Of a DNA stretch of 64,000 nucleotides, positions 739 through 63,426 are shown piece after piece. The stretch comes from an uncultured Candidatus Saccharibacteria bacterium. Its GTDB lineage: Bacteria; Patescibacteriota; Minisyncoccia; Phycocordibacterales; Phycocordibacteraceae. The notes under the pieces were generated by a model, which had not been told where the DNA came from, searched no databases, and was given only the letters and a program-made list of their open reading frames with translations. A program made the translations under genes and the position numbers. Location of the stretch: NCBI GenBank assembly GCA_964402535.1, contig CAYOCH010000001.1, forward strand, positions 8,286 to 72,285, given 5' to 3'. Numbering within the stretch: position 1 is the stretch's first letter; each line of letters starts with the position of its first letter.

Positions 739-762
739 ACCGAAGTTAGGACATCCGATGTC

Positions 763-2337
<1,575 letters not shown>

Positions 2338-4530: not shown

Positions 4531-4550
4531 GGCTACTGCCCCTCTTAAGC

Positions 4551-4578
4551 AAAACCCGCCTCACGGCGGGTTTTGCTT
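4551..4578. terminator. Bidirectional intrinsic terminator (AAAACCCGCC-TCAC-GGCGGGTTTT)
   Basis: Perfect 10-bp stem carrying A4/T4 on both sides, between convergent SWIB gene and mscL. Confidence 0.7.
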
Positions 4579-12712: not shown

Positions 12713-13513
12713 TCATATTTGCATCGAGTCTTGAACTTCGTAAGTCTCTGCGGTCAGTATCAGCTCTATAGAACGCGCCCAAAGAAGATATATGTTACTT
12801 AGTGCAGCATTATGATCAAGAGGTGTTGGGAAGAGTGTGTGTATTTGCTGAACTAATCCGGTTCTATTTTCTGCCGAAATCGCGTAATCAATCGAGCCGC
12901 TTGGATTGGGGTCATTCGTTGGATGCTCAATGATATATTTAATAATCTGCAGTATCTTCGACAGATCGTCTTGAAGCGTTTTATCATCCGCCGCGAATGA
13001 AGCCATCTGGGTCTGGAAAACACGAACGGCTTGGACGTCCTGATTTTGAATAGCAGAGGAATACGAACTTCGCATTTGGTTCACATCTTGAAGTTCCTTA
13101 GTTATGTCTGCCCACAGCAGTGTCGCCGTCGCGCTGATTGCTTTATCGCTGTCATTGAGATAGGGCTGCAAACTACTGCTAGCGTTCTGCAAATGTGTCG
13201 CCGATTCATTTAACGCAGTCAGTATCACGACGTCTGACTGCGATTCTCCGAATGTTGCTTGCGCCTCGGAATAGGTTTTAGTTTTCCCATATAGCTCTGA
13301 AAGGGCAACAAGAAAAGAGTATATATAGTCGCTTGAATGCTGAGAATATTTACTATCATCCGTATTTGATGCGACGGAAGCATTAGTGGTATTTGCAGCT
13401 ACACTGTCGCCTGTGATAGGAGGGCTAGCGACGGAATGAATTCCCCATGCGATAGCTACAATCAATACGAGAACGACAACCGGGAAGAGTGTCGACTGTT
13501 CTGACGGCTTCAT
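12713..13513 (-). CDS. Hypothetical secreted/membrane-anchored Ser/Thr/Asn-rich protein (low-GC island)
   Basis: 266 aa, N-terminal TM helix; about 45% GC versus about 65% in flanking genes; no recognisable domain. Confidence 0.5.
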   Translation of the reverse strand: MKPSEQSTLFPVVVLVLIVAIAWGIHSVASPPITGDSVAANTTNASVASNTDDSKYSQHSSDYIYSFLVALSELYGKTKTYSEAQATFGESQSDVVILTALNESATHLQNASSSLQPYLNDSDKAISATATLLWADITKELQDVNQMRSSYSSAIQNQDVQAVRVFQTQMASFAADDKTLQDDLSKILQIIKYIIEHPTNDPNPSGSIDYAISAENRTGLVQQIHTLFPTPLDHNAALSNIYLLWARSIELILTAETYEVQDSMQI

Positions 13514-15592: not shown

Positions 15593-16843
15593 TTAGGCGT
15601 AGTAGGAACGGACAAAGTCTGCCCGATATTGTTCAAATCGTCCATCGATGATCGCCTGCCGCGCGCCAGCGACGAGGTCGAGGATGAAGCCGACGTTGTG
15701 CATCGAGGCGATAGCTGCGCCGAGCATCTCGCCCGAGCGCAGGAGGTGCGCGACATAGGCGCGAGAGAACTGCTCGGTGCCTGTTACAGCGAGCTCTGGG
15801 TCGAGCGGGCCGAAGTCTGTCCTATATTTTTCGTTCGTGAGACGGATGACGCCTTGTTTCGTATAGATCGAGCCGTGCCGGCCGAGCCGCGTCGCTGCGA
15901 CGCAGTCGAAGAGGTCCATGCCGTTCGCGATGCCCTCGAGGATATCGCCCGGCTCACCGATCCCGAGGAAGTGCCGCGGCAGCTCCTCGGGCAGTTCCCC
16001 CACGGCTGCCGAGAGCGCGCTCCGCATATCCTCCTTGCTGAAGGAGCCGCCGATGCCGATGCCGTCGAAGCCGAGTGAGGCGATCTCGCGAGCCGACTCG
16101 GCGCGCAGATCTTCGTGACGGCCGCCCTGCACGATGCCGAAGATCGCCTGCTTCTTGCTCGCGTCGATATTCTGCCGGTGCGCCGTAAGCGACCGCGCCG
16201 CCCAGCGATGTGTGCGTTCCATCGCCTCCTTCTGGTATTCATACGGCTCAGTCGGCGACGTGCATTCGTCGAAGGCGAAGAAGATGTCCGCGCCGAGTGC
16301 GTGCTGGATCTCGATCGTGCGCTCTGGCGTGAAGCGATGCAGCGAGCCGTCCAGGTGCGAGGTGAAGGAGACGCCCTCGTCGTCGATCACCGCGAGCTGG
16401 CCGTGCTGGCTCGCGACGCTCTCGTCGAAGTGCGCGAGCCCATGTCGGGACGTCGTACGTCCTACATCAGATGTAGGACGTACGACGTCCTCCACATTCG
16501 AGATCTTCGAGATCTTACGGCCGAAGGCCGCCCCGAGCGAGAAGACCTGAAAGCCGCCCGAGTCAGTGATCGTCGGCCCGCTCCAACCCATGAACGTGCC
16601 GAGCCCGCCAGCCTCTTGGACGATCTTCTCTCCCGGCTGCAGGTAGAGGTGATAGGTGTTCGCGAGGACGACCTCGGCGCCGAGCGCCTCGAGGGTCGAG
16701 GGCAGGATGCCTTTCACGTTCGCCTTCGTTCCCACCGGCGTGAAGGCGGGCGTGCGGATCGCCCCGTGAGGCGTCGTGAGGATGCCAACACGCGCGCGGC
16801 TCTTCAGCTCGCGTGATTCAATTGAGAATGAGATCGCGCTCAT
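15593..16843 (-). CDS. tgt: Queuine tRNA-ribosyltransferase (tRNA-guanine transglycosylase) with about 43-aa insertion
   Basis: TDSGGFQVFSLG, FDECT and Zn-site CxCxxC-like blocks conserved; 416 aa versus about 375 typical; extra segment after FSLG contains a perfect palindrome. Confidence 0.85.
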   Translation of the reverse strand: MSAISFSIESRELKSRARVGILTTPHGAIRTPAFTPVGTKANVKGILPSTLEALGAEVVLANTYHLYLQPGEKIVQEAGGLGTFMGWSGPTITDSGGFQVFSLGAAFGRKISKISNVEDVVRPTSDVGRTTSRHGLAHFDESVASQHGQLAVIDDEGVSFTSHLDGSLHRFTPERTIEIQHALGADIFFAFDECTSPTEPYEYQKEAMERTHRWAARSLTAHRQNIDASKKQAIFGIVQGGRHEDLRAESAREIASLGFDGIGIGGSFSKEDMRSALSAAVGELPEELPRHFLGIGEPGDILEGIANGMDLFDCVAATRLGRHGSIYTKQGVIRLTNEKYRTDFGPLDPELAVTGTEQFSRAYVAHLLRSGEMLGAAIASMHNVGFILDLVAGARQAIIDGRFEQYRADFVRSYYA

Positions 16844-17735: not shown

Positions 17736-20090
17736 TTAGCGGATAAGCCGCGCGAAGTCGTCGAGCTCGGGCGGCTTCGCAAATGCGGAGAAGAAGCTCG
17801 TGATGCCCGTGTTCTTGATCGGCGCACCAGAGATGAGTCGGCCGTCGACGACCCCCCACGCGACTCGATATTTGCCGGAGTCGTCCGCCGCGTAGATCAC
17901 CTCGTTCGGATGCGTCGTGAGATATTTCGTCATCACCTCAAGGCGCGCTTCGGCTGTACCGCCGAACGCGAAGACCTTGGTCCCTGCCGAATCGATATAG
18001 AGATGCGTCTCTTTGACCGGCACGTCAAGACCGTAGTTGTTGCGGACGACATCGGCCGCCTGCTCATAGGAGCCCGAGTGGATCAGGTTGCCTGAGCCGT
18101 CCCTGATCGCGTTGCCAGAGCCGTCATGCACGACCGGCGCCTCTGGTGCGAGAGCAGGCGCCGGGGTCGGCACGTTCGCGGCGTTGACTGCCGCCTCGTG
18201 CGCCTCTTGTGCTGCCGTGAGATCGTTGGTCTCGACTGACGGTGGCGGCTGCGCCTCGATATGCGCATCCTCTGGTACGGGCGCGCTCGGAACCGGCGCT
18301 TCGATATGCGGCGCGCCTGACAGCTTCATCCCCTCTGCTGCGTTCACGATGTCGCCGTGCGCCGCGTCAGAGAAATGCAGCGCGCCGTCTGCACCGATCG
18401 AGAGATGCGCACTCTTGTCGATCACGACGCTCCCGCCCTCGCCGAAGAACTTGTGATCCATCGCGAGCCGATGAATCACGCCGTTGATCTTCTCTGGATG
18501 CGCTTTAGCATCAAATAGCCTCTCAATATCACTGTTTGCTTGCATCCCCGCTGGCGGCTGATCAGGCAGCTGCTTGATCAAGTCCTTCAGCATACCCTCG
18601 TAGCCGTGTGACGAAGCGCCGACTGACACGACCGGCGCTTCTGCGATCGGTGCTGGTGCAGCCACCGCAGGAGCCGCCTCAGCTGCCGGAGCCGCGGTTG
18701 CTGCTGCCTGCGGCACCTCCGGCGGTGCTGGCGGCGGCGTCGCATCGGGCACTGACGATGCGTGTGGTGCTAGCGTTGGCGCTTCGCTTGTCTGTGATGC
18801 CATGGGTGCAGCCGCATGGTGACCCAACTTGTCACCAAGCCATTCGCGGACATGCGCCGCCCAGTCCGACTGGCTCACTTCTCTGATCAACTCGCTCATC
18901 GCAAGCGTCATGCCTGCTGAAAAGAGTATCGCCTTTACCATCGCCTTCTCTTTCGCATGCGTTCCGCCCTTTTCGAGCTCGCTCTTCTCAAACTTCAGAA
19001 ACGCTGTCGAAAGTCCGGCGACGCGCTGCGCTGCGACGCCGGTGAGACATGCAAACGCTGCCGGGAGTGACGCGCCGGAGGCGATACCAGCGCCGACACC
19101 GAGCGTGAGTCCGACTGCGATCTTTGTCTTCCATCCCATCTTGTTGTATTTCTCCCCAAGCCGACGAAATCCGCTTTCGACCTTACCCATCTTGGCAAGA
19201 CCAGCATCGAGTTCTTGTGAGCGCACCGCAAGCATCTCTCCAGGAGTCGCGGGTTCCTTCTCCTGCTTCGTCTCCTTCTCTGCATCTGCCTTCGCCGTCG
19301 CCTCGGCAACAAGCCGCTGCAATTCTTCTTGTGCCTCCTTGCGCGTCATCTCCTCGCTCTTCCGCCAGACTGCCGGCCCTTCCGCATTCGCCTTATCAAT
19401 ATCGAATGTCGGCGTTTGCCCCGCCGACTCCTGTGTTGGCAGAGTTGCTGGTTCCGATTTCGCCGGCGCTTGCCGCGCGTCGAGGCGCGCTTGCCCCTGC
19501 GCTATCGCGCGATTGAGCGCACTGCTCTTCGGGTCGTTGATCGATTCACCTTTTTTGAGAGCCTCAGTATTGTCTGCCGTTCTTTCTGCAACCTGCTGCT
19601 GTGCCTCTTGCTGCAAGCTCGCCTTGAGCGCCTCTACATCCGCGCCCGTTTCCAATCCGGCATCAAGGTCGATATCGACATGCTGTTCTTGTCCTGCCGG
19701 CGATAGCGCATCTATGTTCTGAAGGGTGTCCGAAATGACCTGTTCTCGCTCCTCTGGCGTAAATCTGGTCTGCTCTTTTTCTGCCGCAGCTGCCTCCGCG
19801 TAGACGCGCTCGCGGCGTACTGAGTTCAGATCTTCGACCTGCCTCGTCATCGCGTTTTCAATCCTGTCTTTGCTCTTGGCTGCTTTGGCCTTCGGATACG
19901 CTCGGGCGAGCTTAGCGACACGATCGAACATCTCGTTCGCACCCTTCCATGCCTTGCCCTCGAATTCACCGGGATCCTCGCCCGCAAGCTTCAGGCGCTT
20001 CCCCATCGCTGAATACCCCTTCTTTGCTTCTTCAAAAGAGGCCTTCGGATCGAACGGTTTCGCGCTGTCGTCGGGGGGATATTCAGCCAT
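17736..20090 (-). CDS. Large hypothetical membrane protein (coiled-coil N-terminus, 2 TM, Pro/Ala-rich linker, C-terminal globular domain)
   Basis: 784 aa; 5 nt downstream of the ATPase gene on the same strand (operon). Confidence 0.55.
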   Translation of the reverse strand: MAEYPPDDSAKPFDPKASFEEAKKGYSAMGKRLKLAGEDPGEFEGKAWKGANEMFDRVAKLARAYPKAKAAKSKDRIENAMTRQVEDLNSVRRERVYAEAAAAEKEQTRFTPEEREQVISDTLQNIDALSPAGQEQHVDIDLDAGLETGADVEALKASLQQEAQQQVAERTADNTEALKKGESINDPKSSALNRAIAQGQARLDARQAPAKSEPATLPTQESAGQTPTFDIDKANAEGPAVWRKSEEMTRKEAQEELQRLVAEATAKADAEKETKQEKEPATPGEMLAVRSQELDAGLAKMGKVESGFRRLGEKYNKMGWKTKIAVGLTLGVGAGIASGASLPAAFACLTGVAAQRVAGLSTAFLKFEKSELEKGGTHAKEKAMVKAILFSAGMTLAMSELIREVSQSDWAAHVREWLGDKLGHHAAAPMASQTSEAPTLAPHASSVPDATPPPAPPEVPQAAATAAPAAEAAPAVAAPAPIAEAPVVSVGASSHGYEGMLKDLIKQLPDQPPAGMQANSDIERLFDAKAHPEKINGVIHRLAMDHKFFGEGGSVVIDKSAHLSIGADGALHFSDAAHGDIVNAAEGMKLSGAPHIEAPVPSAPVPEDAHIEAQPPPSVETNDLTAAQEAHEAAVNAANVPTPAPALAPEAPVVHDGSGNAIRDGSGNLIHSGSYEQAADVVRNNYGLDVPVKETHLYIDSAGTKVFAFGGTAEARLEVMTKYLTTHPNEVIYAADDSGKYRVAWGVVDGRLISGAPIKNTGITSFFSAFAKPPELDDFARLIR

Positions 20091-20094
20091 AGCC

Positions 20095-22899
20095 TTATCG
20101 CGAGAGGTAGCGCTCCCGAATCATGTTCTCTACCGTAGCACGGTCGCGGCCGTAGGTGAGGGAGGAGAGCTGGATAAGGTCGTTCACCTGCTCGTGATTC
20201 AGTGCCGGCAGATCGGGCGTGCGCAGGTCGAAGGGCTGCTGCGGTACGCCCTGCGAGAGGATCTTCATGTATGCATTGCGGTTCTCGATATTCACGAAGT
20301 CGAGGGCGACGAAGACGGGCGCGAACTGCTTGGCGAAGAACTCGGCATCCTCCTCCCCGACGCGGAAGACCGCCATGTTCCCCACGTTGCCGAAGACTGC
20401 GTCGCGCGTCTTCTCCTCGATCTGGCTCAAGAATTGGTGCGCGACCGTCAAGGAGAGCTTGTACTTGCGCGCCTCCGAAAGGATGCCCGGGATCGAGTCG
20501 GTCGTCACGTTCTGGAACTCGTCGATATACAGATAGAACGGCGGATACGCCGCGCGCGGATTGTCAGCGCGCGAGAGCGCGGCCATGAAGAGCTTGCCGA
20601 CGATGATGAGGCCGAGGAGGTTCGCGTTCTTCTCGCCCAAGCGCCCCTTCGAGAGGTTGATGAGCAGGATCTTCTTGGTATCCATCACCTCGCGGAATTT
20701 GAAAGAGGACTCCTGCTGCCCCACGATCGGGCGGATGAAGTCGTTCGCCGTGAAGTCGTCGAACTTGTTCGTGATATAGGGCACGATATTCTCCAAGGCC
20801 GCGTCACCGCCGGCCTTCGTCGCGATGTCTGTCCAGAACTGGTTCACGATCGGGTTGAGGCTCTTCGCGAGCTTCATGCGGCGGTACTCGCTGTTCGAGA
20901 GCACGCGCGCTATGTCGAGGATCGTCGAGCCGCTCGAAGGATCCTCCATCACGAGCTGCGTCGCATTACGGAAGTATTGCTCGAACGCGGGACCCATCGA
21001 CTCGGGCACGTCGCCATAGAGCCGCTTGAAGATCATCAGGAGCTCGTTGACGATGAACGTCTTCTGCTCCGGCCGCGAAAGATCGTATTCGAGGAAGTTG
21101 AGCGAGAAGGGGCGCGAGAGATCTGCCGGATCGAAGTAGATCACGTCCTTGTAGCGCTCGGGCGGGATCGCCGCGAGGATGTCGAGGATATCGGTGCCAT
21201 GCGGGTCGATAAAGCAGCAGCCCTCGCCCGCATTGATGTCCTGAATGATCATCGACTTCATCAGCCCGGTTTTGCCCGTGCCCGTCTGGCCGATCACATA
21301 GAGGTGCCGCAGGCGATCCTCGCTCGTGAGATAGATCGGCGTTTCTTGTCCGCGGTAGGAGTTGATGCCGAGAAGCGCGCCTGATTGAGGGAGGTTCATG
21401 GGTGCCGCGGCGTGCGTAAATCGCGCCTGCTTCAGGTGCGGCGAGCTCGCGATACCCGCTGGCGGGAAGTGATAGAGCGTCGTGAGCTCGCGCAGCGATA
21501 AGGGAAGCGCCTCTGCCGCAGGGACGCGGAATGAGAAGTCCTCGAACAACGCTTGCGCGCTTCGGCCTTCGATGCGTTTGAAGTCGAGCCGGTTCCCTTG
21601 CGTGTTACCGAACTGGTTGAATCCGGCCTCGAGCTCGCTCAAGACCTGCCCGGCCTTGCGCTCATCGGCAGAGGACGCGACAAGCCGGATCGTCGCGCCG
21701 ACGATCGGCGTCGCGATCTTCTTCTCGACCTCTTGGATGTAACTCTTGTTCGCTTCGGCTTGGCGCGTCTCGGCCTCCTTCGCCTTCTCGACATCCTTGG
21801 GCTTGCTCGAAAAGAGCCGCTTGCTGAAGTCGCGTGCAAGCTCGCCAAACGCCGTCTCGGGCGTGGTGAAGGCGGCTTGGCGCTTCTCCCCTTTTCGCAG
21901 CGCCTGGAGGATCTTGCTGTAGTGGCGCACGTGCCGATCGCCGCGCGGCTCGATGATGAGCTGTATCGCGGCACCCTCGCCCTTGTGCTCGATCTTGGCG
22001 AACGCGTTCGTGATCGCGTTAATCGGGTCGTAGTCGAACTCCGGGTACTCCTTCAAGGGGAGCGCTGGATTCTCGGCCAAGGTCGCGACCGACGCGAGCG
22101 AGGCACCCTTGGGAGCGAAGATGTTGTAGTCCAAGGGCTGCGGGACCAGGTGTGCGTCCGGGAAGATCGCGAGGAGCTGCTTCTCGAAGAGCGCTGCCTT
22201 GCCGTTCGGCACTGCCGCATAGAACTGGAGCTCGGGCGAGTTCGCCGGCACAGCGAGCTCGAGCGCGAAGTAGGGCGGCTCGTCGCCCTGTGCATCGCCG
22301 ACCGAGAGCAACCCGGCATAGAACTGCTCCATGCCGGAGATGAGCTCCTTCAAGGTCTTCTGTCGCGCGCCCTGCTCTTGCACCTTCGGCGCGGGTAGCG
22401 CGATCTCGTAGAGCGTCATCTTGAGCGCGCGGAATCGGGGCGCCTTCTCGTCGGCCCCGGGCACCACGAGGCCGGCGGCGATGTAGCGCACCAGGTAGCG
22501 GTGGAAGTCGTCTGCGACCTCGGGGTCGCCCATCTTCTCGACGATCGCGAGCGCATTCTTGATCCCATGCTCCTGCATCGCCTGTTGCAGGCTCGCGATC
22601 ACGCGCTCGTCGTCGCCAAGGGCGAGATCAGAGAGGATAGCCTCGGCCTCGCTCTTCTTGGTCTTCTCGCTGATGCGATACTCGCGGGCGAGCACCTTAT
22701 CGGGCGCGTCGGCATGCTCCTTGACCTGCTCCGAGATGATGCGCACGTGCTCGAACGCGCTTGGCGACTTGCCCCTGCCCGCCAGCTCCGCCTCTTTCTT
22801 GGCCACTTGCTCGCGCAGGTAGGCCAATTCCGCTTCAGGCGTGGACAACGTCGGTGCCGATTCCATGTGATATCTAGTATACTGCACGCGAATGCTCAA
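20095..22899 (-). CDS. FtsK/HerA/TraD-VirD4-like P-loop ATPase (type IV secretion/conjugation coupling-protein-like)
   Basis: 934 aa; Walker A VIGQTGTGKTGLMK, Walker B YLYIDEFQNV, downstream TVAHQ motif; N-terminal about 450 aa lacks TM helices. Confidence 0.6.
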   Translation of the reverse strand: MSIRVQYTRYHMESAPTLSTPEAELAYLREQVAKKEAELAGRGKSPSAFEHVRIISEQVKEHADAPDKVLAREYRISEKTKKSEAEAILSDLALGDDERVIASLQQAMQEHGIKNALAIVEKMGDPEVADDFHRYLVRYIAAGLVVPGADEKAPRFRALKMTLYEIALPAPKVQEQGARQKTLKELISGMEQFYAGLLSVGDAQGDEPPYFALELAVPANSPELQFYAAVPNGKAALFEKQLLAIFPDAHLVPQPLDYNIFAPKGASLASVATLAENPALPLKEYPEFDYDPINAITNAFAKIEHKGEGAAIQLIIEPRGDRHVRHYSKILQALRKGEKRQAAFTTPETAFGELARDFSKRLFSSKPKDVEKAKEAETRQAEANKSYIQEVEKKIATPIVGATIRLVASSADERKAGQVLSELEAGFNQFGNTQGNRLDFKRIEGRSAQALFEDFSFRVPAAEALPLSLRELTTLYHFPPAGIASSPHLKQARFTHAAAPMNLPQSGALLGINSYRGQETPIYLTSEDRLRHLYVIGQTGTGKTGLMKSMIIQDINAGEGCCFIDPHGTDILDILAAIPPERYKDVIYFDPADLSRPFSLNFLEYDLSRPEQKTFIVNELLMIFKRLYGDVPESMGPAFEQYFRNATQLVMEDPSSGSTILDIARVLSNSEYRRMKLAKSLNPIVNQFWTDIATKAGGDAALENIVPYITNKFDDFTANDFIRPIVGQQESSFKFREVMDTKKILLINLSKGRLGEKNANLLGLIIVGKLFMAALSRADNPRAAYPPFYLYIDEFQNVTTDSIPGILSEARKYKLSLTVAHQFLSQIEEKTRDAVFGNVGNMAVFRVGEEDAEFFAKQFAPVFVALDFVNIENRNAYMKILSQGVPQQPFDLRTPDLPALNHEQVNDLIQLSSLTYGRDRATVENMIRERYLSR

Positions 22900-34630: not shown

Positions 34631-35641
34631 TTATGCGTGACCAGACGCTGTCACCACCTGCTCGAGCTCGGCGGCGGAATTGGCGGCCATGAGCTTGGCG
34701 CGGAGGTCGGCGGCGCCGTCAAAGCCGGTGACGAATGCCTTGATGTGCTTCTTGAGTATCGAAAAGTTCTTCGGCGGCGCGAGCTTCTCAAATCCGTGCG
34801 CGAGTTCGACGAGCGCCATCAGCTTCTCTTGCAGTCCATGTTCGGGTTTCGTAAATCCATCATGCATGATGGATTTACGAAACCCATCATTGCCGCGCTC
34901 CGCAAATACCCACGGATTGCCAAACATGCCGCGGCCGATCATGACGCCGTCACAACCGGTCTCTGCGGCGAGCCGCTCCCCTTCTGCGATGCTCTGCACA
35001 TCGCCATTCCCTATGAGGAGCACATCGGGCGCGATCCGGTCGCGGAGCTCTTTAGCCTTCTTCATCCGCTCCCAATCGGCGGGGACGAGCGAGAGCTCCT
35101 TGCGCGTGCGCAGGTGGAGCGTGAGCGCCGCCGGTCGTGCCGAGAGGATCGGCGTGAGCCACTCTAGAAGCGTCTCTTTGTTATAGCCGATGCGCGTCTT
35201 CACCGAGACCGGCAGCCCTGCAGACTTCGCCGCCTCGATGAGTTCGACCGCTAAGGTCGGCGACTTGATGAGCGCTGCGCCGGCACCCTGCTTCTCGATG
35301 CTCCTATCCGGGCAGCCCATGTTGAGGTCGACGCCGTCGAAGCCAAGCTCGGCCACGACCTTGGCGCCATACGCGATCATCTCGGGTTTCGCCGAGAAGA
35401 TCTGTGCGACGATCGGATGCTCAGCGCTCGTGAACCGCAGATCGCGCATAAGCGGATTCTCTGCGTCCGGCATCTTAGCGATCTCGCGGGTGTGAAGGAG
35501 CCCGTCGGCCGAGACGAACTCGGTCCACGTGACGTCCGGCTTGCCATGCTTCGCAACGAGCGCGCGGAAGGCAGCGTCGGTGACATCCGCCATCGGCGCC
35601 ATCGCGAAGAACGGTCGCGAGAGCTTATTCCAGAATGACAT
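34631..35641 (-). CDS. dus: tRNA-dihydrouridine synthase
   Basis: TIM-barrel Dus motifs (APMADVTD, NMGCP, VKTRIG, conserved catalytic Cys); 336 aa. Confidence 0.85.
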   Translation of the reverse strand: MSFWNKLSRPFFAMAPMADVTDAAFRALVAKHGKPDVTWTEFVSADGLLHTREIAKMPDAENPLMRDLRFTSAEHPIVAQIFSAKPEMIAYGAKVVAELGFDGVDLNMGCPDRSIEKQGAGAALIKSPTLAVELIEAAKSAGLPVSVKTRIGYNKETLLEWLTPILSARPAALTLHLRTRKELSLVPADWERMKKAKELRDRIAPDVLLIGNGDVQSIAEGERLAAETGCDGVMIGRGMFGNPWVFAERGNDGFRKSIMHDGFTKPEHGLQEKLMALVELAHGFEKLAPPKNFSILKKHIKAFVTGFDGAADLRAKLMAANSAAELEQVVTASGHA

Positions 35642-35667: not shown

Positions 35668-36534
35668 TTACCGCTTTGTGCCGTCCGACTTTCGCTTCAC
35701 GTAGACTTTACCGTCGAAGCGCAGGTCGACGTAGACGAGCGAGCCGTCGCCAAGGTTCATGCTGCCCTTGCCCGAGGTGAGCGCGGTAAACGCCGCTTGC
35801 TCGTGACCGAGCACATAGGTCACGCGGGTACCACTCGCGAGATAGTCGTCGATCTCGTCGCCGCGGAGCGCGACCCTGGTCACCTCCGTGCCGAAGGTCG
35901 CGAGCTGCCGCGCGAAGTCGAACGTGCTCGGCAGCTCGTCTGCGCGCGCGATAGTCGCTCGGAGAGGTTCAAGCACATCGCCAATCAGGGGCGCGTAGAC
36001 CGCGAACGGGTTGATCGTCTCGGTCGTCGTCGCAGCAGGTGCGAAGACGAATCCGTTCGCGTCAAAAACATAGCAGTTCTCGACTCCCGATGGCTTGGAG
36101 CTTGCCCCGTTGGAAATCAGATTTTCAACGGGGCACCAGCGTGCGACCGCGACGCGGTCGTTCACCTTGATCGAGAGGCCCGTGAGCCCGTTGTGGAATA
36201 TCGAAATGGAGGCGATCTCCGGATGCGCCGCCATGATGTTCGCGCGGATCTGCCCGTCCGGATAGAAGAACATCGAGTCGCGCGGCACGAGCCCCAGATA
36301 GCTGCCCTGCATCGCCGAGGTCGCAACGTCTGAGAGCGACTGGTCAGCGCCGTAGATCGTGACCTCGCTGATGCGCACGGCGCTCTGGTTCAAGCCGTAG
36401 AGCAGCCCCGCGAGCGCGAGGATTGCGAGAACGACAAACGTGATCAAGACGCGGCGTCGGCGCTGTCGGCGGCGTTCTGCAAGCCGCGCGCTACCGTGCG
36501 GTACCGAGGACAGTCTTGCCGACATACGGCACAA
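35668..36534 (-). CDS. FtsQ/DivIB-like POTRA-domain protein
   Basis: Arg-rich cytoplasmic N-terminus, single TM, then VRISEVTIYGADQSLSDVATSA POTRA-like segment. Confidence 0.45.
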   Translation of the reverse strand: MCRMSARLSSVPHGSARLAERRRQRRRRVLITFVVLAILALAGLLYGLNQSAVRISEVTIYGADQSLSDVATSAMQGSYLGLVPRDSMFFYPDGQIRANIMAAHPEIASISIFHNGLTGLSIKVNDRVAVARWCPVENLISNGASSKPSGVENCYVFDANGFVFAPAATTTETINPFAVYAPLIGDVLEPLRATIARADELPSTFDFARQLATFGTEVTRVALRGDEIDDYLASGTRVTYVLGHEQAAFTALTSGKGSMNLGDGSLVYVDLRFDGKVYVKRKSDGTKR

Positions 36535-37759
36535 GCACCTCGGGCACCTTGATCGTGCCGTCGGCTTGCTGGTAGTTCTCGATGATAGAGACGAGGATGC
36601 GCGGCGTCGGGATCGCGGTCGAGTTCAAGGAGTGCGCGAAGCGCATATTCCCCTCTGCATCGCGGTAGCGGATATTGAGGCGCCGCGTCTGGAAGTCGTG
36701 GAAGTAGGAGGCCGAGCTGATTTCGCGGTACTTCTGCTCTGCCGGGACCCAGAGCTCGACATCATATTTCTTCACCTGACCGAGGCCGAGGTCGCCGCCG
36801 CAGTTCGCGACCGTGTGATACGGGATATTCAAAAGCTCGATGAACTCCTCGGTGTTGCGGTTGATCTGCTCGTGCATGCGCACGGTCTCGTCGTGCTCGG
36901 CCTTGCAGAGCACGACCTGCTCCCATTTGAAGAACTCGTGCACGCGGATGAGGCCCCGGACGTCCTTGCCGTGCGCGCCCGCCTCACGACGGAAGCAGGG
37001 TGAGAACGCGAGGAACCGGATCGGGAACTGCGCCTCCTCGACCGTCTCGTTCATGTAGTAGCCCATCGTCGCGACCTCGCCGGTGCCGGCCAGATAGTCG
37101 CCGTCTTGCGTCTTGTAGAGATCTTCTTCGCCCTGCGGGAGATAGCCCGTGCCCATGAACGGTTCGCGCCGCACGAGACTCGGCACGCTCATGAGCGTCA
37201 TGCCCTTGCCGCCGAAATGCTTCAACGCGAGCTGCCACACCGCGTTCGCGAGGAGCACACCGTCATTCTTCAAGAAGTAGCCGCGGAATCCGGCGACCTT
37301 CGCACCGCGCTCGAAGTCCGCCATATCGTTCGCGACCATGAGCTCGACATGGTCCTTAGGCGTGAACGAAAACTCGGTGGGCGTACCCCACTTCTTCACC
37401 TCGAGATTATCAGCGTCGCTCTCGCCGTCCGGCACCGACATGTCAGGGACGTTCGGCACCGTGAGCATCAGCTGCTGCCACTCGTTCATGACGCCCTTCA
37501 GCCGCTCCTCTGCCTCAGTCATGCCGTTCTTGAGCTCGCGCATTTGCGCGAGGAGCTTCTCGCGATCCTCGCCCTTGGCGATCTGGATCTCGTTGCTGCG
37601 GCGGTTCTGCTCTGCGCGCTTGGTGTCGAGCTCGAGGCGGATCGCCTTGCGCTCGTCGTCGACCTTGATAAGACGGTCGATGTCGACCTCGATATGCTTC
37701 TTAGCGGCGCCTGCTTTGATAATGTCCGCATTCTCGCGGATAAAGTGAATATCGAGCAT
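36491..37759 (-). CDS. serS: Seryl-tRNA synthetase
   Basis: 422 aa; N-terminal coiled-coil arm plus class II motifs 1-3. Confidence 0.95.
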   Translation of the reverse strand: MLDIHFIRENADIIKAGAAKKHIEVDIDRLIKVDDERKAIRLELDTKRAEQNRRSNEIQIAKGEDREKLLAQMRELKNGMTEAEERLKGVMNEWQQLMLTVPNVPDMSVPDGESDADNLEVKKWGTPTEFSFTPKDHVELMVANDMADFERGAKVAGFRGYFLKNDGVLLANAVWQLALKHFGGKGMTLMSVPSLVRREPFMGTGYLPQGEEDLYKTQDGDYLAGTGEVATMGYYMNETVEEAQFPIRFLAFSPCFRREAGAHGKDVRGLIRVHEFFKWEQVVLCKAEHDETVRMHEQINRNTEEFIELLNIPYHTVANCGGDLGLGQVKKYDVELWVPAEQKYREISSASYFHDFQTRRLNIRYRDAEGNMRFAHSLNSTAIPTPRILVSIIENYQQADGTIKVPEVLVPYVGKTVLGTAR

Positions 37760-38636
37760 GATTTATCAGTATACTGCACCCATGGAGATACGCGAGCTTG
37801 CGAAGGAGGAGTGGCCTGCACAACTACGGGAGATCCCGCAACCGCCGAAGCGCCTCTGGGCGCGGGGCGTGCTACCGCCGAGAGAGAACAAACTCCTCGC
37901 GGTCGTCGGCAGTCGTGCGATGACCCGATACGGCCAAGAGGCGTGCGAGCGGCTCATCATGGGGCTCGCAGGCTACCCCGTCACGATCGTCTCCGGCCTC
38001 GCGCTCGGGGTCGACACCTGCGCCCACAAGGCGGCGCTCGCTGCCGGCCTCCACACGCTCGCCGTGCCGGGCTCGGGTCTCGACGATTCGATCCTCTACC
38101 CAAGGAGCAACCGTCCGTTCGCAAAGCAGCTCCTCGCAAAAGGCGGCGGGATGATCTCTGAGTATGAGCCCGTGACGCCCTCGCACGTGCGCTACTTCCC
38201 CGAGCGCAACCGCATCATGGTCGGCCTCTCCGACGCGGTGCTCGTAGTCGAGGCCGGTGAGAAGTCGGGCACGCTTATCACCGCGCGTCTCGCATCGGAC
38301 TATAACCGTGACCTCTTGTGCATCCCGCATCGGATCGGCGACCCGCACGCGTTCGGCCCGCACCTCTTCATCCGTCTCGGCGCGGCGCTCGTCACCGATG
38401 CGCTTCACATTCTTGAGGTGCTCCACATCCCGCCCCGTGAAGCGAGCTCGACCGCAACGCCGCGCGACTTAACTGACGCCGAATCGGTTGTCTGGGATAT
38501 GATCGCCGAGCCTAAGACGCGCGACGAGATCCTGCGTGGTGCTGCGGGCGGCGCGGGCGAGATCATGACCGCGCTCATCGCGCTCGAGCTGCGCGGCCTC
38601 GCGCGCGAAGAGTTCGGCGCGTGGCATCGCGTTTGA
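37758..38636 (+). CDS. dprA: DNA-processing protein DprA (Smf)
   Basis: Rossmann-like DprA core (LLAVVGSRAMTRYG...IVSGLALGVDTCAH...GGGMISEY). Confidence 0.85.
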   Translation: MIYQYTAPMEIRELAKEEWPAQLREIPQPPKRLWARGVLPPRENKLLAVVGSRAMTRYGQEACERLIMGLAGYPVTIVSGLALGVDTCAHKAALAAGLHTLAVPGSGLDDSILYPRSNRPFAKQLLAKGGGMISEYEPVTPSHVRYFPERNRIMVGLSDAVLVVEAGEKSGTLITARLASDYNRDLLCIPHRIGDPHAFGPHLFIRLGAALVTDALHILEVLHIPPREASSTATPRDLTDAESVVWDMIAEPKTRDEILRGAAGGAGEIMTALIALELRGLAREEFGAWHRV

Positions 38637-39452: not shown

Positions 39453-41864
39453 GTGCGCGTTATGAGTGAGGGGGTGAGCTCCAAACTACTCATCGTCGAA
39501 TCACCGACCAAGGCGCGCACGATCGGTCACTACCTGGGCAAGGACTACACGGTCCTCGCTTCAGTCGGCCACGTGCGCGATTTGCCCAAGACGAACAAGG
39601 ACGCCGTCGACATCGAGGGCGGCTTCGTGCCGCGCTACGTGATCCCCGCCGAGAAGCGTGAGGTGATCGAGAAGATCGAGCGCGCCGCCAAGAAGGCCGA
39701 CGAGATCTATCTCGCGACCGACCCCGACCGCGAGGGCGAGGCGATCGCGTGGCATATCAAGGAGGTCGCCGGACTGAAGCAGCCTAAGCGCGTCGCCTTT
39801 CACGAGATCACGAAGGAGGCGATCGAGGAGGCGCTCAAGGAGCCGCGCGCGATCGACGAGCACCTGCGCCAGGCGCAGGAAGCCCGCCGCGTGCTCGACC
39901 GCATCGTGGGCTACGACCTCTCCGGCCTCATCTGGAAGAAGGTGCGCTACGGCCTCTCTGCCGGACGCGTGCAGTCACCTGCGCTCCGGATCCTCGCGGA
40001 GCGCGAACGCGAGATCACTTCGTTCATCCCGGTCACGTACTTCGTGCTCTCTGCGCTCTTCACCTCGAAGAAGGGTGAGATCGCCACGACCTGCACCGAG
40101 CAGCCCGCGACGCGCGAGGAGGCCGAGCGGATCGTGCGCGAGGGCAAGAGCGCGTCGTGGCAGGTCGCCGACGTGAGCGAGAAGGCCGAGGAGCGCAACC
40201 CGCGTCCACCCTTCACCACCTCGACGCTGCAGCAGGCAGCCTCGACGCGGCTCGGCTTCGCACCTTCGCGCACGATGCGCGCCGCGCAGAAGCTCTACGA
40301 GGCGGGTCACATCACCTACATGCGTACCGACTCGGTGAACCTCGCGAAGGAGGCGGTCGCCAAGCTCGCCGGCGTCGTCGAGAAACAATTCGGCAAGGAG
40401 TACCTGCAGGTGCGCGCCTACAAGACGACGAGCAAGAACGCCCAGGAGGCGCACGAGGCGATCCGCCCCACCGACCCTTCAAACACGCACGCAGGCGCGA
40501 CGCCTGACGAGACGCATCTCTATGAGCTTATCCGCACGCGCACGCTCGCCTCGCAGATGGCGGCCGCCAAAGTGATGCGCACGTCGATTTCAATACAAGC
40601 AGATAAAATGATTCCGCTCTTCGTCGCGAACGGCTCGCGGGTCATCTTCCCGGGCTGGCTCGCGCTTGACGTGAAGGCGCGCGGCGAGGACGTCGAGCTG
40701 CCGCACGTCGCGAAGGGCGATGCCGTGTCGCTCCTCTCGCTTACCAGTGAAGAGAAGCAGACCGAGCCGCCGAACCGCTACACCGAGGCCGGCCTCATCA
40801 AGGAGCTCGAGAAGCGCGGCATCGGCCGCCCCTCGACCTACGCCTCGATCATGAAGACGATCCAGGATCGCGGCTATGTAGAGAAACTCGGCAGGGCGCT
40901 TAAGCCGACCGCGACCGGCATGGTCGTCTCCGGCTGGCTCGAGGAGCACTTCCCCGAGTATGTGAGCGACACGTTCACCGCCGAGATGGAGGATGAGCTC
41001 GACGAGATCGCCCGCGGAGAGCGCGGCTACACCGAGACGCTCTCGGCCTTTTATGGACCGTTCGAAAAGGCGGTGCACGCCAAGGACAAGCTGCCCAAAG
41101 CGACCTCGCTCGGCAACGTAGACGCCAAGTTCCCCTGCCCGATCTGCGGCGGCCCGATGGAGTTGAAGCTCGGCCGCGGCGGCGTCTTCATGTCCTGCAA
41201 GCGCTACCCGGACTGCGTCGGCGCCCGCACCGAGGACGGCGCTGAGCTCAAAGGTGACGAGCCGATCGGCAGCCACCCCGAGACCGGCGCACCTATATAT
41301 GTGAGGAGCGGCCGCTACGGGCCGTATGTCGAGATGCCCGAGCCCGAACCAAGGTCAGACCTTAAGAATTCGGATCCAAGGTCTGACCTTAGTTCGGGTA
41401 CGAAGAAACGCGGTAAAGGGCGACCGAAGGTCGCTGCCAAGCGCGCGAGCATCCCTGCCGGCACTAAGCCCGAGGACGTGACGCTCGCCGACGCCGTGCG
41501 CTACCTCTCGCTCCCGCGCGAGCTCGGGACGCATCCCTCGACCGGCAAGCCGGTCATCGCCTCCACCGGCCGATTCGGCCCCTACGTCGGGAGCAACGGC
41601 GAGTTCCGCTCACTGAAGAAGCAGGACCCCTACACCGTGACGCTCGACGAGGCGCTCGCGCTCCTTGCGCAGCCCAAGCGGCCGCCCAAGGGCGTCGAGA
41701 TCGTGCGCGAGATCGGCGCGCACCCAAAGTCTGGAAAGCAGCTCGTCCTCTACAAGTCGAAGCAAGGTCTCTTCCTCAAGAAGGGCTTGCGCCGCATCTA
41801 CCTGCCTTCGAATACGAGCGCCGACGCGCTCACGCCCGCAGAAGCGGCCACGTATCTCGCATAA
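39453..41864 (+). CDS. topA: DNA topoisomerase I
   Basis: TOPRIM (LLIVESPTKARTI), catalytic Tyr region, C-terminal Zn-ribbon (CPICGGPMELK...CKRYPDC) and basic tail. Confidence 0.95.
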   Translation: MRVMSEGVSSKLLIVESPTKARTIGHYLGKDYTVLASVGHVRDLPKTNKDAVDIEGGFVPRYVIPAEKREVIEKIERAAKKADEIYLATDPDREGEAIAWHIKEVAGLKQPKRVAFHEITKEAIEEALKEPRAIDEHLRQAQEARRVLDRIVGYDLSGLIWKKVRYGLSAGRVQSPALRILAEREREITSFIPVTYFVLSALFTSKKGEIATTCTEQPATREEAERIVREGKSASWQVADVSEKAEERNPRPPFTTSTLQQAASTRLGFAPSRTMRAAQKLYEAGHITYMRTDSVNLAKEAVAKLAGVVEKQFGKEYLQVRAYKTTSKNAQEAHEAIRPTDPSNTHAGATPDETHLYELIRTRTLASQMAAAKVMRTSISIQADKMIPLFVANGSRVIFPGWLALDVKARGEDVELPHVAKGDAVSLLSLTSEEKQTEPPNRYTEAGLIKELEKRGIGRPSTYASIMKTIQDRGYVEKLGRALKPTATGMVVSGWLEEHFPEYVSDTFTAEMEDELDEIARGERGYTETLSAFYGPFEKAVHAKDKLPKATSLGNVDAKFPCPICGGPMELKLGRGGVFMSCKRYPDCVGARTEDGAELKGDEPIGSHPETGAPIYVRSGRYGPYVEMPEPEPRSDLKNSDPRSDLSSGTKKRGKGRPKVAAKRASIPAGTKPEDVTLADAVRYLSLPRELGTHPSTGKPVIASTGRFGPYVGSNGEFRSLKKQDPYTVTLDEALALLAQPKRPPKGVEIVREIGAHPKSGKQLVLYKSKQGLFLKKGLRRIYLPSNTSADALTPAEAATYLA

Positions 41865-45288: not shown

Positions 45289-46182
45289 ATGACAATACAA
45301 TTACTCGCCATCGCCGGCCCGACCGCCTCGGGCAAATCCTCTCGCGCCGTCGAAGAGGCGCTCACGCGCAACGGCGAGATCATCTCGGTCGACTCGCGTC
45401 AGGTCTACCGCGGGCTCGACATCGGCACCGAGAAGGTTACGGCATCTGAGATGCGCGGTGTGCCGCACCACCTGCTGGATATACGCGAGCCGGAGGAGAC
45501 ATATTCCGCTGGCGAGTTCGTCGCGGATGCGACAACGGCCATTAACGATATCGTCGCTCGCGGCAAGCTGCCGATCCTTGTGGGCGGCTCGCACTTCTAC
45601 TTCGACGCGCTCCTTCAGGGGCTGCCCGACAGCGCCGACCCTGACCCGACGCTCCGCGCAGAGCTCGAGCGGCTCTCTGACGAGGAACTCTGTGCTCGCG
45701 TGCGCGCTGCCGATCCGCGTCGCGCTGCCGAGCTCGACCCCAAGAACCGCCGCCGCTTGATCCGTGCACTCGAGATCATCACCGCCCGCGGCTCCGTCCC
45801 GGAGCGGCGTTCGTTATCTTGTACGACCGTTGAAGATAACGAACACCGGCGACCATTTCAAGCCGAGTGGATCGAGATAAATCCGGATCGGGATGAGCTG
45901 CGGGCGCGGATCGACGCTCGGCTCAAGAGCGCGTTCGAGCGCGGCCTGATCGATGAGGTGCGGCGGGTCCGCGAACGTGTGGGCGACGCGCGGATCAACG
46001 AGCTCGGGCTCGAGTATCGCGTCGTGGGAGAGTTCTTGCGCGACGAGCGCAGTGAGGCATCACTCCTCCCTGCTCTCTCCGCCAAGCTCTGGCAATATGC
46101 CCGCCGGCAGAAGGCCTGGCTGCGCAAGCTCCGCGACGAGAACGTTATTGCGGGAGCGCCGTCGCACCCGGACAGAAGCTGA
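45289..46182 (+). CDS. miaA: tRNA dimethylallyltransferase
   Basis: P-loop IAGPTASGKS, DSRQVYRGLDIGT, and typical MiaA remainder. Confidence 0.85.
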   Translation: MTIQLLAIAGPTASGKSSRAVEEALTRNGEIISVDSRQVYRGLDIGTEKVTASEMRGVPHHLLDIREPEETYSAGEFVADATTAINDIVARGKLPILVGGSHFYFDALLQGLPDSADPDPTLRAELERLSDEELCARVRAADPRRAAELDPKNRRRLIRALEIITARGSVPERRSLSCTTVEDNEHRRPFQAEWIEINPDRDELRARIDARLKSAFERGLIDEVRRVRERVGDARINELGLEYRVVGEFLRDERSEASLLPALSAKLWQYARRQKAWLRKLRDENVIAGAPSHPDRS

Positions 46183-56028: not shown

Positions 56029-56670
56029 ATGGGAAGACATGCAAACCACTTCGACCTGTCATGGACTCACGATCTCGCGTATGTTGTGGGACTCTTAACA
56101 AGCGACGGCAATCTGTCTCCCGATGGTAGACACATTAATCTTACCTCTCGCGACAAGGAACTTGTTGAATATGCTCGCACGATTCTGGGTCTTACAAACA
56201 AGATCGGCAAGAAGGGTCGAGGGGGTTCGTTAACCAAAGACTATTATGTGCTGCAGTTCGGCAGCATACAATTCTATTCCTTTTTGCTTAAGATTGGGCT
56301 GACACCTGCGAAGTCAAAGACGCTAGGGCCGCTTGCGATCCCTCAACATTATTTCTGCGATTTCGTTCGCGGCTGCATCGACGGAGATGGAAACATCAGT
56401 GAGGCCTTGCACCCTGAGAGTTCGCTTATCCAGCTCCGTTTGCGCATTTCATCGGCAAGCCCCGCGTTCTTACGATGGTTGTTGACTCAACTGCGGCGGC
56501 AGTGCGAGGTGCCTGGGGGCTGGATCTATTTAGACAAGAAGAAATCTGTGAGTATGTTATGTTTTGGCAAGAGAGATTCAATCGATATATTACGAAGGGC
56601 GTACGAATATAAATCAGCGTATTTTCTGAGACGAAAATATGCGATTGCTAGGAAATATCTGGGCGAGTAG
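56029..56670 (+). CDS. LAGLIDADG family homing endonuclease (two-motif, single-chain type), free-standing
   Basis: Motif 1 YVVGLLTSDGNL and motif 2 FVRGCIDGDGNI about 100 aa apart; about 47% GC versus about 65% genome. Confidence 0.7.
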   Translation: MGRHANHFDLSWTHDLAYVVGLLTSDGNLSPDGRHINLTSRDKELVEYARTILGLTNKIGKKGRGGSLTKDYYVLQFGSIQFYSFLLKIGLTPAKSKTLGPLAIPQHYFCDFVRGCIDGDGNISEALHPESSLIQLRLRISSASPAFLRWLLTQLRRQCEVPGGWIYLDKKKSVSMLCFGKRDSIDILRRAYEYKSAYFLRRKYAIARKYLGE

Positions 56671-56742
56671 CCGAATTGGTACAGGCGCATGGCTTAGGAC
56701 CATGTCTCGCAAGAGGTGAGGGTTCGAGTCCCTCCTCGCCCA
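56661..56742 (+). tRNA. tRNA-Leu(TAG)
   Basis: Type II tRNA: acceptor GGGCGAG/CTCGCCC, anticodon loop CTTAGGA, long variable arm, T-loop TTCGAGT. Confidence 0.75.
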
Positions 56743-58853: not shown

Positions 58854-58896
58854 CAAAAAAAGGCCGCACGGATATTCCGGCGGCCTTTTTTCTTTT
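58854..58896. terminator. Bidirectional intrinsic terminator (A7-GGCCGCACGG-ATATT-CCGGCGGCC-T6CT4)
   Basis: GC hairpin with A-run upstream and T-run downstream between convergent NfeD-like gene and first pilin-like gene. Confidence 0.8.
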
Positions 58897-59651: not shown

Positions 59652-60218
59652 CTAAATGCCAGAACCGGTGCTCACGGAACACTGCGCAACGTCAGACACG
59701 ACGCTACCGTCAGGACAATACACATTGTTTGTGACAGGTGCACTCGCACTGGTTTGAGATGCCCCAGTAGGCAACGTCGCACTGGTTTGTGTAGGTGGCG
59801 GAGGCGGGATCGAGGCGCCAGAACCGGTCTGCGACGCGGATTTGCCGATCGTCGGGAAGTCCGGCGCGTTGCCGCCAGGCCGCAGACCGAGCGTGGACAT
59901 GAAGAGGTTCACGAGCCCCCAGAGTGAGAGGATGACCACGAAGCCGATCACGCCCCAGAGCGTGAACTGACGTCCTGTCGAGCGGCTCGTTTCGTCATCT
60001 GCTCCCTTGATGAAGTAATTGTAGACACCCCAGATAAAGACGATGAAGGCGATCGCCATCACTACTGGCACCAAGACGAAGTTGATGAAGTAGATGATCT
60101 GGTCGGTGTAGGGCTTCTTGATCGCGTCGATGTTGATGCCTTGCTGCGCTGCTGCGGCAAACGGCAGAGCGAACGCTGCTGCAAGCGATGAGAGGCGGAG
60201 GAGTCTTTTCATGGTCAA
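59652..60218 (-). CDS. Two-TM pilin-like small protein, paralog 3 (Pro/Thr/Ser-rich C-terminal tail)
   Basis: 188 aa; KGADDETSRSTGRQFTLWGVIGFVVILSLWGLVNLF; tail IPPPPPTQTSATLPTGASQTSAS. Confidence 0.65.
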   Translation of the reverse strand: MTMKRLLRLSSLAAAFALPFAAAAQQGINIDAIKKPYTDQIIYFINFVLVPVVMAIAFIVFIWGVYNYFIKGADDETSRSTGRQFTLWGVIGFVVILSLWGLVNLFMSTLGLRPGGNAPDFPTIGKSASQTGSGASIPPPPPTQTSATLPTGASQTSASAPVTNNVYCPDGSVVSDVAQCSVSTGSGI

Positions 60219-60225
60219 GATCAGA

Positions 60226-63362: not shown

Positions 63363-63426
63363 TCGTTATCCGTATCTTCTCGATAGTCGACAATCCACTA
63401 ATTATAACGGCCGTTAGAATTAGTGG

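Follow-up and report, generated by a model that had tools for sequence, protein, structure and literature searches.

Why would a bacterial gene for a tRNA-modifying enzyme carry, in frame and within its coding sequence, a palindrome of 42 bp whose two arms are fully complementary? The question is raised by dus, which encodes a tRNA-dihydrouridine synthase of 336 aa (Pfam PF01207, E 7e-59) on the minus strand at positions 34631-35641 of a 64-kb stretch of contig CAYOCH010000001.1 (the whole of this stretch being hereafter called the window). The named relatives of the Dus and Tgt proteins of the window belong to Candidatus Kaiserbacteria/Paceibacteria, within the candidate phyla radiation (CPR). 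As presented below, the element consists of additional DNA that keeps the frame and is free of stop codons, and it belongs to a family distributed over many genes and intergenic spacers. With a probability that we put at about three in four, the palindrome in dus belongs, as one copy among others, to a dispersed family of small hairpin repeats of Kaiserbacteria/Paceibacteria genomes, built like the repetitive extragenic palindromic sequences (REPs) and the hairpin-forming REP doublets (REPINs), and resembling in behaviour the Rickettsia palindromic elements (RPEs).

The palindrome and its place in Dus

The palindrome, GGGTTTCGTAAATCCATCATG|CATGATGGATTTACGAAACCC, occupies positions 34844-34885 and consists of two 21-nt arms, 100% complementary and without spacer, which meet at ATG|CAT, exactly as the sequence-only reading of this stretch had described it. 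It begins at codon position 1 of the minus-strand gene and encodes residues 253-266 of Dus, GFRKSIMHDGFTKP; these residues are preceded by ND, hence DGF occurs twice in the peptide, and both the open reading frame (ORF) and its translation agree with the in-frame position and the DGF...DGF repeat proposed at the time. Regarding chance, 20 Markov-type resamplings of the window, in which the dinucleotide content was approximately kept, yielded a longest perfect arm of 10-15 nt versus 21 nt in dus, and the RNA fold of the element region reaches -38.1 kcal/mol against -15.8 +/- 2.9 for shuffled sequences (z = -7.6).

In gene orientation, the body of the element is made up of core 1 (GGGTTTCGTAAATCC, 34871-34885), the inner arms ATCATG|CATGAT (34859-34870) and core 2 (GGATTTACGAAACCC, 34844-34858), each 15-nt core forming a small hairpin of its own, GGGTTT-CGT-AAATCC. 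Both cores show three mismatches to the core of the repeats designated below as type A, GGACTTCGTAAGTCC, for which the window contains 8 matches at that level versus 1.3 expected. Three nucleotides past core 2, at 34836-34840 on the minus strand (CCATG on the plus strand), a CATGG tag lies within the codons for E-H-G (GAA CAT GGA), while the 5' flank AATGAT (34886-34891, minus strand) provides an ATG that pairs in the RNA fold with the CAT of the tag, thus forming an imperfect outer stem; this outer ATG...CAT pairing, which lengthens the hairpin, is found both here and at the element of tgt presented below. With 43% G+C, a location internal to the coding sequence and GAACATGGAC as the sequence that follows, the palindrome does not correspond to an intrinsic terminator, i.e. 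a G+C-rich hairpin with a T run downstream of a gene, and the terminator-like hairpins of the window, at 4547-4578 and 58856-58891, look unlike it. Scanning the window against Rfam 15 at gathering score returned only 13 tRNAs, no other RNA family being matched.

At the protein level, the element is located in the linker between the TIM barrel, ending with ...GNPWVF, and the C-terminal helical domain. Alignment of this C-terminal region confirmed the earlier suspicion that about 14 residues are extra, since the linker from NPW to EK counts 32 aa in the window Dus versus 18 aa in orthologues free of the insert. Of the 120 Dus proteins closest to it (68-77% identity), 68 show the short linker (...NPWVF-AGRKxEDTPL-xEKL...) and 52 an insert at exactly the same position; more distant Paceibacteria Dus mostly have 15-21 aa in that linker, with no palindrome. 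Alignments to PDB structures end at residues 243-252. In the AlphaFold model mf796681e6295 (mean predicted local distance difference test score, or pLDDT, of 83), residues 249-265 are the only run of at least three residues with a pLDDT below 50 and appear as coil linking the last helix of the barrel to the C-terminal helical domain. These sequence comparisons show that the dus palindrome is an insertion that adds 14 residues to a linker predicted to be disordered.

A dispersed family of hairpin doublets

A second long perfect palindrome within a coding sequence of the window, also reported by the sequence-only reading, proved to be real: it lies in tgt at 16448-16490 on the minus strand, with 21-nt arms on either side of a single nucleotide (21+1+21), reads GGACGTCGTACGTCC-TACATC-T-GATGTA-GGACGTACGACGTCC, encodes EDVVRPTSDVGRTTS and is accompanied by a CATGG tag at 16440-16444. 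Most Tgt orthologues are without the insert, and variants of it are present at the same site in P0198, P0170, P0125, P0131, P0169 and P0210. The two palindromes had been regarded as independent of each other and unrelated in sequence, a view that has to be abandoned, as the dus and tgt elements align with 41/60 identical positions (score of 13 versus a maximum of 6 in 1000 shuffles) and have in common the GGnnnT-CGT-AnnTCC core, the inner CATC/GATG arms and a CATGG tag placed 3 nt past the last core.

Scanning of metagenome contigs for the type-A doublet TTCGTAARTCC-N(0-16)-GGAYTTACGAA (GGAYTTCGTAARTCC-spacer-GGAYTTACGAARTCC) gave at least 128 elements in at least 120 stretches, 119 of these elements being unique among the matches listed. 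About 70% of the listed elements (89/128) are found inside ORFs of at least 150 aa, which cluster into at least 43 unrelated families; ten hosts were confirmed by Pfam, namely GluRS, Pol III delta', UvrB, PurL, UvrC, TsaD, UvrA, PheRS-beta, ValRS and AlaRS, and Dus, Tgt and MiaA are to be counted among the hosts as well. Outside genes, on some contigs of lower GC, the hairpins are clustered in the short spacers that separate ordinary housekeeping genes (L100, L148 and L179). All listed type-A elements are doublets, mostly of 33-58 bp, with spacers of 0-21 nt (mostly 0-13 nt) and perfect arms mostly of 14-29 nt; 36 of the 119 unique elements, a set selected by pattern and hence biased to perfect cores, form perfect palindromes of 40 bp or more, the loop being of at most 3 nt. 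In addition, other genes (L108, L122 and L132) harbour a subfamily with long arms (...AAATCCATCAT/ATGATGGATTT...), whose inner arms ATCAT/ATGAT are those of the dus copy.

The phase in which the element is read varies from copy to copy, resulting in peptides such as GLRKS...GLTKS, DFVSP...DLRSP or GFVNP...GFTKP, and the frame is kept open, without stop codon, through every intragenic copy seen. In MiaA of L132 and L191, the sequence ...GGGTTTCGTAAATCCATCAT-CAA-ATGATGGATTTACGAAACCC... has arms identical over 20 nt to those of the window dus copy, in another phase, and the window MiaA is empty at that site (AL-TRN-GEIIS versus AL-MGFVNPSSNDGFTKPIM-GEIIS). UvrA, UvrB and UvrC of the window are likewise empty where relatives 73-87% identical have 15 to 22 additional aa; when window MiaA, UvrA, UvrB and UvrC are taken as the empty forms, filled forms are longer by 14 to 22 aa, in frame and at loops. 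The scenario considered as damaging by the sequence-only reading, in which such palindromes would be frequent simply through base composition, was not seen, their frequency being due to their nature as copies of a repeat family. As for the means of dispersal, a viral vector was considered and rejected, the type-A doublet pattern having 0 matches in 2.9 million viral contigs. The repeat family is apparently undescribed: the core sequences were not found in 8 million papers, a literature search on CPR and palindromes brought up nothing relevant, and no paper was found that mentions the cores or such repeats in CPR bacteria.

The CATGG tag, present on one side only, was observed in 33 of the 119 unique type-A elements (28%), at exactly 7 nt after ...ACGAA in 28 of these 33, where about 1% would be expected by chance. 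Tagged ends read GTCC-NNN-CATGG(G/A)C and nothing is conserved at the ends of untagged elements. The tag occurs across hosts and frames, being translated as K-H-G in UvrA and UvrC, I-M-G in MiaA and E-H-G in Dus. Within ORFs of at least 200 aa, it is positioned downstream of the element in 24 cases and upstream in 4 (sense strand), an orientation bias that is only suggestive because many cases are orthologous sites. The residues xHGL, considered as a universal tail of the element, turned out to be only partly so, with CATGG found in 28% of type-A copies and absent from the topA and atpA copies. At the ends of the elements, neither a GTAG nor a CGTC tetranucleotide was seen, and GC skew was uninformative for orienting the elements relative to replication.

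From the DNA of relatives, it appears that three types of insert, A, B and C, occupy the same dus codon in different lineages, each arm being again a small hairpin of its own. Type A corresponds to GGACTTCGTAAGTCC-12 nt-GGACTTACGAAGTCC in L007, L084 and L088, with 20-nt arms in L081 and 21+21 in the window, type B to GGACATCGGATGTCC-12 nt-GGACATCCGATGTCC in L085, and type C to CAAGGTTCGACCTTG-13 nt-AAGGTCGAACCTTG in L002 and L086. The pair of 15-mers filling the linker in L085 is also that of a type-B doublet of the window, GGACATCCGATGTCC-10 nt-GGACATCGGATGTCC (749-788, minus strand), which spans the stop codon of atpA together with the 14-nt atpA-atpG spacer and encodes the last AtpA residues, GTSDVQMR*; the gene after atpA (MALKDIKAKI...) is probably atpG, judged by its position. 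A type-C doublet, CCCGAACCAAGGTCAGACCTT-AAGAATTCGGATCC-AAGGTCTGACCTTAGTTCGGG, is present in topA of the window (41343-41398, plus strand), with 21-nt arms differing by one mismatch; it encodes PEPRSDLKNSDPRSDLSSG and falls in a lysine-rich linker between two C-terminal TopA repeats. Among related genomes, type C is also found at the same topA site in L002 (4150-4205) and L023 (4193-4246) and is missing from others about 80% identical. Across genes, the type-C copy in dus of L002 and the one in topA of L023 are identical at 41 of 42 positions.

Some further observations were made on these sites. The 14-nt spacer of the topA doublet is inverted in L023 relative to the window and L002, which would correspond either to a flip between the arms or to insertion in the opposite orientation. 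Some dus linkers are composite, with a complete type-B element coming after half of a type-C one in P0015 and about one and a half type-A elements in L087, which suggests that elements land in or beside existing ones. A further hairpin type, GGAAAGTC-A-GACTTTCC (peptide GKSDFPE), was observed in topA of L009 (4941-4971) and in the dus linker of L010 (2942-2960), the length of the latter linker being almost unchanged. In miaA of the window, an imperfect palindrome (45805-45848, plus strand) with 21-nt arms, 86% complementary, corresponds to an insert of 10-11 aa relative to other MiaA; it resembles a palindrome of L035 (17784-17821) and its belonging to the same superfamily is uncertain. Another imperfect palindrome, with 16-nt arms (94%), lies in an FtsQ-like gene (36103-36135), and both may be decayed elements of other types. 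Finally, a solitary core-like 15-mer, GAACTTCGTAAGTCT (12733-12747, plus strand), with two mismatches to the type-A core, is situated near the 3' end of an ORF located between uvrA and uvrB (12713-13513, 266 aa), which has no Pfam match and an unusually low G+C content at third codon positions (GC3) of 0.43.

Origin and evolution of the copies

The sequence of the element is constrained or homogenised at the DNA level. Among dus orthologues picked by protein similarity rather than DNA pattern, identity of the cores amounts to 90% (100% among L007, L084 and L088), as compared with 71% for the flanking conserved coding DNA and 48% for the synonymous sites of the flanks; three variable stem positions were changed on both arms (G-C/A-T, T-A/C-G and A-T/G-C), with one uncompensated change in L082. 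On a Dus tree built without the linker, presence or absence of the insert takes 30 parsimony steps, versus a mean of 39 with shuffled labels. Proteins only 5-6% apart differ in this respect, P0074 being empty, P0043 of type B and P0007 of type C, and their DNA is 95-100% identical over about 2.2 kb upstream, 62-71% at the linker and 73-91% from there to the end of the gene. Three metagenome-assembled genomes of Kaiserbacteria with consecutive accessions (L209, L210 and L211; GCA_0389126xx-0389128xx) exhibit a recombination-like mosaic, with 95-100% identity before the dus linker and 62-91% from the linker on. The recombination mosaic around the dus linker is suggestive. Since the flanking codons always differ and filled and empty alleles are not related by clean excision, filled and empty linkers are read as old haplotypes shuffled by homologous recombination, not as fresh insertions at the dus site.

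The explanation that we propose takes as its unit a 15-nt self-complementary core, GGAYTT-CGT-AARTCC, which is found as an inverted doublet with a spacer of 0-13 nt and is followed, in a large subfamily, by the one-sided tag NNN-CATGGG. Copies of a selfish type would have spread to many unrelated sites, and the survivors in genes would be those keeping the frame, without stop codon, in tolerant surface loops or interdomain linkers. Spread could proceed via a single-stranded hairpin intermediate, in which a structure-specific nuclease or transposase would recognise the tagged hairpin in its single-stranded DNA form and copy it elsewhere, by analogy with the REP-associated tyrosine transposases (RAYT/TnpA-REP) and IS200/IS605 as presented in PMC6006769, PMC8266576 and PMC3733652. 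The identity of the arms may be maintained by hairpin-templated copying, whether through template switching or through conversion of one arm by the other, or else by long-armed copies of the family that repeatedly replace the element. Filled and empty linker alleles would then be exchanged between related lineages by homologous recombination, and the inserted peptide itself would be without function.

Several results weigh against this explanation. By Pfam, no transposase or Y1/HUH gene was recognised in 26 ORFs of the window or in 10 ORFs adjoining the clusters of L100, L148 and L179, and tblastn with IS200 TnpA and E. coli RAYT queries over 2.1 Mb of genome fragments returned nothing below E = 0.1, which together make a weak negative; as no transposase was found, we infer mobility from the distribution of the copies only. 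Comparison of filled and empty UvrA, UvrB, UvrC, MiaA and Dus, including the trio 5-6% apart, revealed no clean target-site duplication or excision footprint; the flanking codons differ even between the Dus genes of this trio and no fresh insertion event was caught. ATGGG-like motifs are present on both sides of some copies (UvrA, MiaA), inconsistently. The copies inside this genome have diverged (dus versus tgt about 68%), which implies that there was no recent burst here, and the strong conservation of the cores could reflect a host function. A bolder version, in which CATGG-tagged doublets would constitute a CPR-specific mobile system operating without RAYT-type transposase, with arms kept perfect by active hairpin-templated conversion, continually colonising and remodelling essential genes of these minimal genomes and riding between lineages on recombined segments, is in our opinion unlikely; if true, no mobile repeat family would have been described for CPR bacteria before this one, and the maintenance of palindromes in coding DNA could be studied in a natural system.

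A host function might be exerted by the nucleic acid, as a locally selected hairpin of the dus mRNA or DNA regulating dus through ribosome pausing between domains, an RNase III site or attenuation. The very stable fold (-38 kcal/mol, z = -7.6), the position at a domain boundary and the folding potential kept across orthologues by changes on both arms would suit such a role, but the same sequence is found in unrelated genes and intergenic clusters, about 57% of close Dus orthologues do without the hairpin, and near-identical Dus have none, type B or type C; a hairpin so dispensable and so dispersed is improbable as a gene-specific regulator. Selection might act instead on the peptide GxRKS...GxTKS-xHGL, for instance through binding of tRNA or of a partner, considering that the insert-bearing enzymes Dus, Tgt, MiaA and TsaD all modify tRNA and that the peptide motif recurs. 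This is highly improbable, however, as the same DNA is read in different phases into different peptides, nonsynonymous changes on one arm are mirrored by synonymous changes on the other, the insert is predicted to be disordered, and the hosts include unrelated enzymes and non-coding DNA. The DNA uptake sequences (DUS) of Neisseria and uptake signal sequences (USS) of Haemophilus also occur in frame within genes, and an enrichment in genes for genome maintenance is reported for them. A comparable uptake or recombination signal would be in line with the presence of UvrA/B/C, TopA and Pol III subunits among the hosts, with cores conserved across lineages far past neutral expectation, with the recombination-like mosaic at the dus linker and with dprA a few kb away (window ORF 37758-38636; Pfam DNA_processg_A in syntenic loci). 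Yet the density of doublets is far too low and uneven for that purpose (about 4-5 in the 64-kb window, none in many related 20-kb loci and five within 11 kb in L002), several unrelated core types coexist in one genome and such signals are not normally nested palindromes, so that we give this explanation little credit.

Two other explanations dispense with dispersal. An artefact of assembly or sequencing, such as a fold-back chimera, can yield a perfect palindrome, typically at contig ends, and one case was met in L164, where a 113-bp perfect palindrome (2132-2244) with 53-nt arms and a type-A core inside stops about 18 nt short of the end of its 2.2-kb contig, probably as a fold-back assembly artefact seeded by the hairpin. 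The dus palindrome, in contrast, is internal to a 137-kb contig, keeps the reading frame and is matched, at the same codon, by homologous inserts in many independent assemblies that different studies and pipelines produced, which leaves an artefact extremely unlikely. Birth in place by template switching during replication, that is an inverted duplication of neighbouring sequence without mobility, is a recognised route from a quasi-palindrome to a perfect palindrome (as discussed in PMC6649704), and symmetrisation of the spacer would be consistent with the series from L084 (15-nt arms, 12-nt spacer) via L081 (20-nt arms, 5-nt spacer) to the window (21+21). It fails to account for the 20-nt identical arms in MiaA of other contigs, for the 41/42 identity of dus and topA copies between genomes and for the common one-sided CATGG tag; these cross-gene identities contradict it as the sole explanation, a very unlikely one in our estimate, and template switching may be the cause of the symmetric inner spacer. 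Growth of the window copy from an ancestor with 15-nt arms by this route was also considered; it is conceivable, but as a long-arm subfamily exists in other genes, the long arms of the window copy may be inherited and growth in place cannot be asserted.

If the dus palindrome is indeed a copy of a dispersed hairpin repeat, it has implications for how CPR (or Patescibacteria) genomes are perceived. These tiny and gene-dense genomes are usually discussed in terms of loss, whereas their core genes here bear selfish-looking hairpin repeats coding for extra loops, in functions ranging from DNA repair and replication to tRNA synthetases and tRNA modification, in parallel with the RPEs of another reduced lineage. 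Such elements would account for many lineage-specific insertions in CPR protein alignments, can mislead phylogenies as well as structure predictions, mark permissive loop sites in essential enzymes and may serve as recombination markers between related populations. Besides, with members from perfect to slightly imperfect, the family offers many natural replicates for the persistence of palindromes in coding DNA.

Other features of the window may be mentioned here. A free-standing ORF at 56029-56670 is that of a LAGLIDADG-type endonuclease (Pfam LAGLIDADG_3, E 5e-9); its GC3 is low and it abuts a tRNA gene (56661-56742), the surrounding stretch at 54-60 kb being of lower GC. At 17736-22899, an ORF for a TraG/VirD4-like coupling protein (934 aa) stands beside a 784-aa ORF without Pfam match and, together with two type IV secretion pilin-like genes at 59652-60693, forms a conjugation- or secretion-like set in a CPR genome. 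An imperfect palindrome of 30+30 nt (63381-63440, 77% complementary), upstream of a PaaX-like regulator gene (63427-63942) and overlapping its start, may be an operator.

Comparison with known repeat systems

The closest likeness in construction is with REPs and REPINs, for which further literature is available (PMC3116915, PMC3337134), namely short palindromic units in many copies, often paired as inverted doublets able to form a larger hairpin, with a short conserved motif at one end only, clusters between genes and, in some cases, several families per genome. In the present family, copies are numerous and dispersed (119 unique listed elements in 43 ORF families plus clusters) and are paired in inverted orientation with a short spacer. 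Occasional in-frame intragenic dimers are a further likeness, Di Nocera et al. 2013 (PMC3733652) reporting REPs inside genes, mostly as dimers that code for 20-30 aa and often in repair genes and tRNA synthetases, and equating the small RPEs of Rickettsia with CGTC-tagged REPs. The hosts differ, being CPR bacteria, a group missing from the phyla that the passage of PMC3733652 considered here names. The tag differs as well, CATGG at 3 nt from the stem instead of GTAG or CGTC, and the present unit is a 15-nt perfect mini-hairpin, so that the doublet is a nested palindrome. While REPs are mainly extragenic, 89 of the 128 listed copies here are in ORFs of at least 150 aa, and no RAYT/Y1 transposase was found, whether in the window, among cluster neighbours or in the 2.1 Mb of fragments. 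In other words, the present family works like intragenic REPs yet falls outside the GTAG/CGTC REP superfamilies by their defining traits, i.e. by its tag and its intragenic majority, no RAYT having been found in the genome fragments covered.

In behaviour, the nearest counterpart is provided by RPEs, reportedly described by Ogata et al. in 2000 as being inserted, without loss of frame, into many housekeeping genes of a genome that is small and reduced and as being translated into extra surface segments. We know of no dedicated transposase for RPEs. In-frame and non-disruptive insertion at surface positions is also what the present elements display, with 14 to 22 additional aa and, in the case of Dus, a predicted coil with pLDDT below 50. 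RPE-1 measures about 100-150 bp versus 33-58 bp here, and sequence, tag and host phylum differ. RPEs lose their repeat identity over time according to PMC6649704, whereas most copies here have perfect arms.

Coding palindromes of this perfection are the subject of that same source (PMC6649704), for the mitochondria of Nematomorpha, where perfect inverted repeats in translated genes are gained and lost between relatives and where the authors proposed active conversion or template switching for palindrome perfection. There, both arms code for conserved protein and repeats reach up to 284 bp; here, an extra linker loop is encoded by a dispersed sequence family that is also extragenic. The byp elements of Magnusiomyces mitochondria, as summarised in PMC6649704, are short palindromic mobile inserts in protein-coding genes that are skipped by the ribosome. 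Contrary to byp, which need not be in frame, all intragenic copies of the present family keep an open frame and so add predicted residues. [quoted passage not shown] The present element, by comparison, is entirely an inverted repeat, with no clean boundary even between Dus genes about 5% apart. What it would share with PARCELs (PMC2996958) and intragenic MITEs (PMC5896051, PMC10969869) is a nature of mobile repeat DNA translated within host proteins.

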